A DNA stretch of 12,615 bases. Source: a virus (taxonomy: Duplodnaviria; Heunggongvirae; Uroviricota; Caudoviricetes). Within the stretch, counting starts at the first letter, position 1, and each line of letters begins with the position of its first letter. This document shows, piece after piece, positions 2,429 to 3,133 of this stretch. Position numbers and translations under genes: made by a program. The stretch lies in the IMG/VR virus record IMGVR_UViG_2547132277_000006. One strand, 5' to 3'. Below the pieces are notes generated by a model. The model saw only the letters and a program-made list of their open reading frames with translations, did no database searches and had not been told where the DNA came from.

Positions 2429-3133
2429 TTATCCGATATCGCTTCGGGAAACGGATAACAACTTTAATTCTGACTCAAGTTCATCAACTCTTTCAGTCAG
2501 CTTCTGGATATGGTGAATCAGTGGAACAACCAGACGTTCGTACATTACACCTTCGGCAACAAGGCCATTGCTGGAAATAGCTTCAGGAGCATCATCTTCG
2601 TTAGCTGGTCGCCAGTGTACAAACTGAGGGGCAATTTCTCCTACTTCCTCGGCAATCAATCCGTAGAATCCCCAGTCACGCCTGTCATTTTCGTATTGCG
2701 ACCTGTACCACACAGGGCGCATCCTGAAAATGAGATCGGCGTGCTCTGAATCTATCGTCTCTACTGAATGTTTATAGCGAATAGACGATGTTGACCGCAG
2801 TACAGACGAAATTGCAGGGTCAGGATTAAGATAAAGGTTTGCCGCCGCTGTAGTCGTGCCCAATCCCCACATATAAAACGCTTCACGGCCAGTCAACGGG
2901 TAAAAATCTCCACCATAACGACCGCTTTCCAGATCGTTCACTTCCAGTTTGTTTTTCAGCTTATTATCAACTTCAGTTTTTGTGTATCTGGTGCTGATAT
3001 CCTGCTTTGCACTGGTCATATCAGTCTGAAGCGTTGATACTTTTCCGTTAATTGAGGAAATATCTTCCTTAGTTTTACTGACATCTCCCTTTAGCGTGGT
3101 GATATCTCCTGGAATTACTGTCGATGTAGCCAT
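2429..3133 (-). CDS. Tail-fibre-like protein with C-terminal S74-type intramolecular chaperone/autoprotease domain and an unusually short N-terminal part
   Basis: 234 aa; SD GGGAG 5 nt upstream. N-terminal heptad-like repeats (TLKGDVSKTKEDISSINGKVSTLQTDMTSAKQDIS). C-terminal motifs S116-S-I-R-Y-K121, WYRSQY, GFYGLIAEEVGEIAPQFV and MYERLVVPLIHHIQKL...ELESEL resemble the endosialidase/T5 L-shaped-fibre chaperone domain (Ser-Lys dyad, GxIAQE-like motif, C-terminal helix). Confidence 0.7.
   Translation of the reverse strand: MATSTVIPGDITTLKGDVSKTKEDISSINGKVSTLQTDMTSAKQDISTRYTKTEVDNKLKNKLEVNDLESGRYGGDFYPLTGREAFYMWGLGTTTAAANLYLNPDPAISSVLRSTSSIRYKHSVETIDSEHADLIFRMRPVWYRSQYENDRRDWGFYGLIAEEVGEIAPQFVHWRPANEDDAPEAISSNGLVAEGVMYERLVVPLIHHIQKLTERVDELESELKLLSVSRSDIG

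Follow-up and report, generated by a model that had tools for sequence, protein, structure and literature searches.

The window analysed here, meaning the whole stretch of 12,615 nt taken from the IMG/VR virus record IMGVR_UViG_2547132277_000006 (Caudoviricetes), carries a DLP12-type defective lambdoid prophage. Along the minus strand, RefSeq annotation and the ORF list place quuD, essD, rrrD, rzpD, nohD and a 71-aa fragment of the terminase large subunit, then a 314-aa 'head spike fiber domain' protein followed by proteins of 93, 234 and 97 aa, and after the 97-aa gene a tail-fibre-assembly remnant and appY. Positions 2000-4600 are 100% identical to chromosomes of ETEC-type E. coli, among them strain 99-3165 and several O6:H16 strains. 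The 234-aa gene, referred to here as the mini-fibre gene, is listed with its neighbours and its internal features in Table 1. IS1 is found at both ends of the window (1-698 and 12322-12615, the right copy being cut by the edge), bracketing the prophage remnant together with appY. Other genes seen in the window are a porin gene of the OmpC/NmpC type, apparently intact, which separates the Q antiterminator from the lysis genes (8096-9178, plus strand), an iss/bor lipoprotein gene (5964-6305, plus strand) and an Rz1-like lipoprotein ORF (6396-6578, minus strand) lying out of frame inside Rz (6337-6810).

Table 1. The mini-fibre gene, the parts of its product and the adjoining genes (positions counted from the first letter of the window)
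Feature	Position	Strand	Description	Remark
p97 gene	2125..2418	-	97-aa membrane protein with two predicted TM segments (phrog_1443)	Conserved right flank of the slot
Mini-fibre gene	2429..3133	-	Complete; 234 aa, 26.3 kDa	Identical to RefSeq WP_000235988.1
S74 domain	2432..2788	-	Peptidase_S74 intramolecular chaperone domain, residues 116-234, 13.8 kDa	Long amphipathic terminal helix, residues 198-232
Candidate dyad	2771..2788	-	SSIRYK codons, S116-K121; predicted Ser-Lys catalytic dyad	Predicted cleavage site T115|S116
Tip segment	2789..2938	-	Non-helical, residues 66-115 (…GTTTAAANLYLNPDPAISSVLRST)	
Stalk	2939..3103	-	Coiled coil, residues 11-65	Six clean heptads (11-52), then the YTKTEVDNKL fibre motif
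Anchor	3086..3133	-	N-terminal, codons 1-16, MATSTVIPGDITTLKG	Common to larger distal fibres (346, 384 and 574 aa)
Shine-Dalgarno sequence	3138..3144	-	GAGGGAG	5 nt from the ATG; overlaps the TGA stop of the 93-aa gene
p93 gene	3143..3424	-	93-aa protein (phrog_1361)	Accompanies LamG-type side fibres constantly; always directly ahead of distal genes that bear the anchor
stf, 5'-truncated	3421..4365	-	Side tail fibre (Stf), 314 aa	GTA-spike-fibre and LamG-like domains
Terminase fragment	4334..4549	-	Terminase large subunit, 71 aa	Marks the deletion of head and tail genes

From residue 7 to its end at 314, the 314-aa ORF matches residues 474-781 of an intact 781-aa Stf (locus L013) at 100% identity, and its first six codons come from terminase-derived sequence read in another frame; the terminase fragment runs into the truncated stf at a junction lying at 4334-4371 on the minus strand. 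Because the ORF begins in terminase sequence and then equals Stf 474-781, it follows that a single deletion fused terminase sequence to the interior of stf, removing all head and tail genes. With its partner Stf truncated and the tail genes deleted, the mini-fibre gene is therefore stranded: it is an intact orphan whose product has nothing here to attach to, and the biological consequence in this defective prophage is small.

The two genes flanking the mini-fibre gene are themselves conserved. The start of the 93-aa gene (its product is called p93 below) overlaps the stop codon of the fibre gene, and homologues of p93 were found in 183 phage records, where they invariably come right behind a fibre of the LamG/galectin type. 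The phages that carry them include lambdoid, T1-like, Dhillonvirus, Queuovirinae, T5-like and rV5-like phages, a far wider range than that of the mini-fibre. No Pfam or NCBIfam family was found for p93, its homologues among the matches listed in a large-database search were all at least 85% identical, and its AlphaFold model (mean pLDDT 44.7) is unusable; it may be a fibre chaperone, a cap or an adaptor. The 97-aa protein (p97) is also encoded by phage 21, one of the classical phages, and Aeromonas phages have more distant relatives of it. As this membrane protein adjoins the fibre module, it could be a lysogenic-conversion or exclusion factor.

RefSeq carries the mini-fibre protein under the name 'tail fiber domain-containing protein'. 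A good ribosome-binding site of its own had been credited to the gene, and the purine-rich sequence directly ahead of its ATG (Table 1) bears this out. A promoter scan of the coding strand found no promoter belonging to the gene; its expression therefore presumably relies on read-through of the late operon. Literature searches found no experimental work on the 234-aa protein. Papers on T1-like phages that mention a 'chaperone of endosialidase' deal with longer fibres.

The C-terminal portion of about 120 residues had been taken, in the preliminary description of this DNA, for an S74-type chaperone, and profile match, catalytic dyad and fold match all uphold that assignment. Alignment to Pfam Peptidase_S74 (PF13884, MEROPS S74) is significant, with residues 116-172 covering profile positions 1-57 of 58 at 27.6 bits (gathering score 22; E 3.7e-6). 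In the translated ORF, SSIRYK occupies residues 116-121 and GLIAEEV lies at residue 158. S116 and K121 do not vary among 24 aligned homologues, which reach down to 30% identity, and S117 hardly varies. Among PDB sequences phmmer matched the DT57C-type L-shaped tail fibre 8hqz_d (E 2.2e-8), whose SG..YK aligns with the predicted catalytic Ser and Lys; the ICA domain of MyRF (7dc3) is also matched (E 0.019), and a PDB profile search with the homologue alignment returned nothing beyond 8hqz. The AlphaFold model, a monomer built on the 24-homologue alignment and informative for the S74 half only, has pLDDT values of 85-95 over residues 125-230, including the terminal helix (198-232), and the S74 half has the fold of solved IMC/ICA domains. 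The domain sits at the C-terminus (116-234 of 234) and ends in that long helix. By every feature that can be tested from its sequence and model, the 234-aa protein is a member of Peptidase_S74.

Ahead of this domain lies a passenger of 115 residues, in agreement with the earlier impression that it is unusually short. It had been described as some 110 residues of heptad-like sequence, which holds for the N-terminal half with its six heptads and fails for residues 66-115, a separate conserved segment that is not helical. In the AlphaFold monomer the N-terminal helix spans about residues 12-49 (12-60 at the widest) with moderate confidence, and residues 58-114 fall below pLDDT 50 and are unreliable. 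The number of heptads varies among relatives by whole repeats: a 227-aa form is without DVSKTKE, and a 268-aa relative (P0009) carries extra repeats. Such whole-heptad insertions and deletions would be expected of a structural coiled coil. Domain searches of the protein found S74 only, and no receptor-binding domain is recognisable in the passenger.

The tip segment connects the mini-fibre to far longer proteins. It is conserved with the last ~40 residues preceding the cleavage site of long fibres, with N99 invariant, and residues 90-115 are homologous to the very end of these passengers, where the segment …TTTxxANxYxxPxxxxxxVxRSTSS is common to both. A HMMER scan of residues 110-234 against 1.84 billion cluster representatives gave 2732 clusters at E <= 0.001, in which the nearest S74 domains are 65-73% identical and stand at the C-termini of fibres of 539-1243 aa; one long fibre (P0184) ends in the very same 30 residues as the mini-fibre. 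As both the nearest S74 domains and the pre-cleavage segment are common to long fibres, the mini-fibre looks like an anchor and coiled coil attached to the last ~50 residues of a conventional fibre and its chaperone.

The gene is by no means confined to this prophage. It is carried by 739 of 5426 complete E. coli genomes (14%), in up to three copies per genome, and genes encoding 221-241 aa with the same start occur in plaque-forming lambdoid and T1-like phages. Searches of 50,697 phage records with tblastn found full-length copies, 92-95% identical and each a gene in its own right, in three lambdoid phages (PhiR49_1, PhiR55_1 and IdasGreatGrand), and copies 57-61% identical in dozens of T1-like Drexlerviridae. 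Gene order is retained in these phages: PhiR49_1 has Stf (812 aa), the 93-aa protein, the 234-aa protein and the 97-aa protein, and in KarlJaspers a lateral tail fibre of 651 aa is followed by a 92-aa protein and then by one of 225 aa labelled 'putative lateral tail fiber chaperone'. The contig encoding the 268-aa relative likewise shows the order Stf, p93, S74 protein.

A survey of 80 IMG/VR loci with copies 92-100% identical to the mini-fibre gene gave a consistent picture. The ORF is intact in every one (227-241 aa), a p93 homologue was detected immediately upstream in 77 with a similarly placed gap in the other three, and the p97 gene follows in 79, the eightieth locus ending before that point. 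Stf is full-length in most of these loci, and its identity ranges over 59-99% against the 92-100% of the mini-fibre. Among 34 distinct alleles the pairwise dN/dS is 0.15 overall, with 0.17 for residues 1-115, 0.12 for the S74 half and 0.11 for the tip (66-115); the protein is under purifying selection in both halves. The mini-fibre gene is an intact and widespread prophage gene, ordinary except for its small size.

A scan of GTDB genomes found no close relatives outside coliphages and Escherichia. Copies 95-97% identical were found on contigs of 267-2836 bp in assemblies labelled as a Collinsella MAG, Corallococcus exercitus and Alkalicoccobacillus porphyridii (L214, L215 and L216). Coverage is under 1 for both contigs from isolates, and the one from Collinsella has the look of a binning error; all three can almost certainly be put down to E. 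coli contamination or to mis-binning. Metagenomic S74 proteins with short passengers (~10-130 aa) were set aside, some probably being truncated gene calls, as exemplified by P0055, which is a fragment of the P0057 type. Two others (P0228 and P0282) are metagenomic proteins of 140-159 aa in which the RSTSS cleavage motif is preceded by only ~10 residues; these may be chaperone domains that stand alone, or their starts may have been mis-called.

In comparing loci, the mini-fibre gene is seen to occupy a slot of constant position, preceded by a LamG-type side tail fibre and the 93-aa protein and followed by the 97-aa membrane protein; the order Stf-p93-S74-p97 is present in 77-80 of the 80 IMG/VR loci. 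Phage 21, ev207 and ev243 show that the slot may also be vacant, for in them the 97-aa gene comes directly after the 93-aa gene. The Stfs of these three phages are 73-84% identical to Stfs that have a distal gene, and the distal gene is therefore not required to fold Stf. In other phages the slot is filled by a different protein, of 346 aa in PhiR63_1, 574 aa in IrisVonRoten (Gp24) and 384 aa in VogelGryff, the S74 passengers in these being 226, 463 and 263 residues long, respectively. KarlBarth holds a pair of 98 and 196 aa instead.

The occupants have only their first ~15 residues in common. The consensus MxTxTVIPxDITxLK is found in the 234-, 346-, 384- and 574-aa proteins as well as in KarlBarth gp30, being MATSTVIPGDITTLKG in the mini-fibre and MATSTVIPDDIKTLKS, MVTKTVIPTDITKLKN, MAKTITNIPKDITNLKN and MVTKTNIPADITALKN in other slot occupants. 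In KarlBarth (Dhillonvirus; L008, 3770-4649) the 98-aa anchor protein is followed by an overlapping 196-aa Phage_tail_C_2 protein, and there is no S74 domain; the anchor is therefore not tied to folding of the S74 type. When viral contigs were scanned with a degenerate DNA pattern for the anchor, 80 matched; the occupants in these belong mainly to the ~234-aa and ~346-aa classes, and a p93 homologue lies at most 400 nt upstream of the anchor in all 79 evaluable contigs. The 346-aa occupant (L004, 4292-5332, from PhiR63_1) shares the first ~15 codons, which lead into a globular middle of ~200 residues and a divergent S74 domain (52.8 bits). This form is present in about 29 of 80 IMG/VR loci (L091-L170), its frequency in prophages is about equal to that of the 234-aa form, and frameshifted or truncated copies of 90, 194 and 323 aa also exist.

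The boundaries of the exchangeable part can be read from the alignment of this prophage with PhiR63_1. Their DNA is 90% identical from the end of stf across the 93-aa gene and for 44 nt into the distal gene; the bodies of the distal genes are unrelated, and in the 97-aa gene identity returns, at 100%. The cassette boundaries thus fall exactly at codon ~15 and at p97. Against the more distant IrisVonRoten, the anchor is identical at 11 of 16 positions, whereas the 93-aa protein and the C-terminus of Stf are each 38% identical, which points to protein-level constraint on the anchor. The anchor peptide is likely a docking anchor, as judged by its recurrence on otherwise unrelated proteins, although part of its conservation could come from a role as a recombination junction. 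In broader terms, three components make up a portable cassette: a LamG-type proximal fibre, the 93-aa partner, and a distal protein that can be exchanged and bears an anchor of 15 residues. Coliphages of the lambdoid, T1-like, T5-like, Queuovirinae and Dhillonvirus groups have this cassette in common, and it could lend itself to plug-and-play engineering of fibres.

Taken together, the mini-fibre is probably the smallest member of a modular family of distal or branch subunits belonging to two-part side tail fibres, one which would trimerise by itself, cleave at T115|S116 and dock by its N-terminus. The possibility of a small adaptor had been raised before, and this came close; the protein is better described as an occupant of the distal-subunit slot, its N-terminal ~15 residues being common to larger S74 fibres. 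Like other distal subunits, it is encoded downstream of a proximal fibre and has a short N-terminus common to otherwise unrelated distal parts. It does not have a variable receptor-binding domain, as S74 is its only domain.

The course of assembly can be proposed from the behaviour of S74 domains elsewhere, namely the endosialidase C-terminal domain, T5 pb1 and the ICA domain of MyRF. Three chains would associate through the S74 chaperone domain, which would then template the tip (66-115) and the six-heptad coiled coil; Ser116 and Lys121 would next cut T115|S116 and free the 13.8-kDa chaperone. The mature product would be a stalk of three ~12.5-kDa chains, roughly 8-10 nm long. A short trimeric coiled coil as the end product, as envisaged in the preliminary description, is likely on these analogies and can be regarded as supported. 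The N-terminal anchor would dock the stalk onto a complex of the proximal fibre and p93, a step suggested by comparative genomics, by a published AlphaFold-Multimer model that places Gp24 of IrisVonRoten on Gp22, a proximal fibre with a galectin-like end (PMC11990801), and by genetic work on DT57C, in which LtfB is connected to the virion via LtfA, its N-terminal ~45 residues making the attachment (PMC4728585). As no receptor-binding domain is present and the mini-fibre is so well conserved while Stf varies, the stalk would more likely act as a conserved, non-diversifying accessory tip or branch than as the main determinant of specificity. The same high conservation beside a variable Stf is unusual for a receptor-binding tip and counts against the distal-subunit explanation.

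One unlikely alternative holds that the protein is not part of the virion and is a chaperone acting in trans, its anchor-tethered S74 domain trimerising or folding the upstream LamG-type side fibre. A very short passenger without a receptor-binding domain, a gene directly downstream of the fibre and a sequence that stays constant while Stf varies would all suit such a helper, but phage 21, ev207 and ev243 make the same family of Stf (up to 84% identical) with p93 alone, so that co-occurrence with the fibre is not obligate. The GenBank label 'putative lateral tail fiber chaperone', which comes from the BASEL annotation, speaks for this reading at first sight; however, the same label is on the 384-aa VogelGryff protein with its full passenger, and it therefore merely echoes the Pfam name. 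Variation in the number of heptads and an anchor common to bona fide distal fibres fit a structural role instead. S74 domains are described as acting in cis, which likewise argues against a trans-acting helper, and no Pfam, NCBIfam or PHROG match to the Tfa-type family (lambda Tfa, T4 gp38, Mu U) was found.

Of comparably low probability is that the mini-fibre is a self-excising device for assembly or capping rather than a receptor binder, either trimerising or maturing the Stf/p93 complex in trans or leaving behind a short coiled-coil plug by which docking on the LamG-type side fibre is blocked or regulated. If true, a chaperone of the 'intramolecular' kind would have taken on a new, intermolecular role.

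It is also improbable that the protein is incorporated whole, with the S74 domain kept as a distal knob or removed only on host contact as a transient cap. Conservation of the S74 half (dN/dS 0.12) equals that of the remainder, and transient chaperone caps have been proposed for other fibres in a reference that is cited in PMC11990801; yet Ser116 and Lys121 are invariant in 24 of 24 homologues, as expected if catalysis is selected, and cryo-EM of a BASEL fibre with an S74 domain has no density for that domain (PMC12143355). The weakest reading, a decaying 3' remnant of a long fibre gene whose ATG was kept by chance and whose 5' sequence was lost, as the preliminary description had suspected, is refuted, for although the closest S74 domains end long fibres (with the identical last 30 residues in P0184) and the surrounding prophage is heavily deleted, homologues of 221-241 aa with the same independent start exist in intact plaque-forming phages of two unrelated groups, 80 of 80 loci are intact under purifying selection (dN/dS 0.15), and what stands at the N-terminus is a functional motif that has been conserved rather than upstream sequence picked up at random.

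In comparison with known systems, the S74 half of the mini-fibre resembles the chaperones of K1F endosialidase, T5 pb1 and DT57C LtfA in its profile match, in the S-x4-K at the start of the domain, in the GxIAxE helix motif, in the terminal coiled-coil helix and in the match of fold. It differs from them in its passenger, which is 115 residues (a coiled coil and a ~50-residue tip), whereas theirs are of several hundred to more than 1000 residues and form a beta-helical fibre or an enzyme. MyRF (7dc3), a eukaryotic membrane-bound transcription factor, is related through the ICA domain only. The heptads of residues 7-59 align weakly with the P22 gp26 tail needle (E 0.005; phrog_1219), which is without S74 and has a different location in the virion, and this likeness probably reflects heptad composition only.

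Closer counterparts are found among distal fibres. DT57C LtfB and IrisVonRoten Gp24 are, like the mini-fibre, encoded downstream of a proximal fibre; they end in an S74 domain and begin with a short conserved stretch for which docking on the proximal fibre has been proposed. Their receptor-binding domains are large and variable, while the mini-fibre has almost none and is conserved. The locus of the IrisVonRoten T-shaped fibre matches further in its anchor, in a 92-aa gene upstream and in a LamG/galectin-type proximal fibre. The 346-aa protein of PhiR63_1 (phrog_4563; XSB43317) shares the slot, the p93 and p97 flanks, the first codons and an S74 domain, and differs in its globular middle and in its S74 subtype (SDRDLK…). 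A coiled-coil N-terminus with an S74 C-terminus has been recognised as fibre class TC7 (PMC12143355). By overall plan, a coiled-coil stalk followed by S74, the mini-fibre is comparable to this RBPseg class and to JakobBernoulli Gp36 and RuthEpting Gp29, which unlike it have a sizeable T5-like receptor-binding tip; JakobBernoulli was absent, as an analogue of the slot, among the first 60 of 143 records with p93 homologues. The mini-fibre protein is thus of a known kind and uncharacterised, and is distinguished by a near-minimal S74 passenger and by its place in a portable fibre cassette system. Its passenger of ~115 residues is near the short end among the full-length S74 proteins seen here, which therefore makes it a convenient minimal system for studying how S74 domains nucleate trimer folding and cleave themselves.
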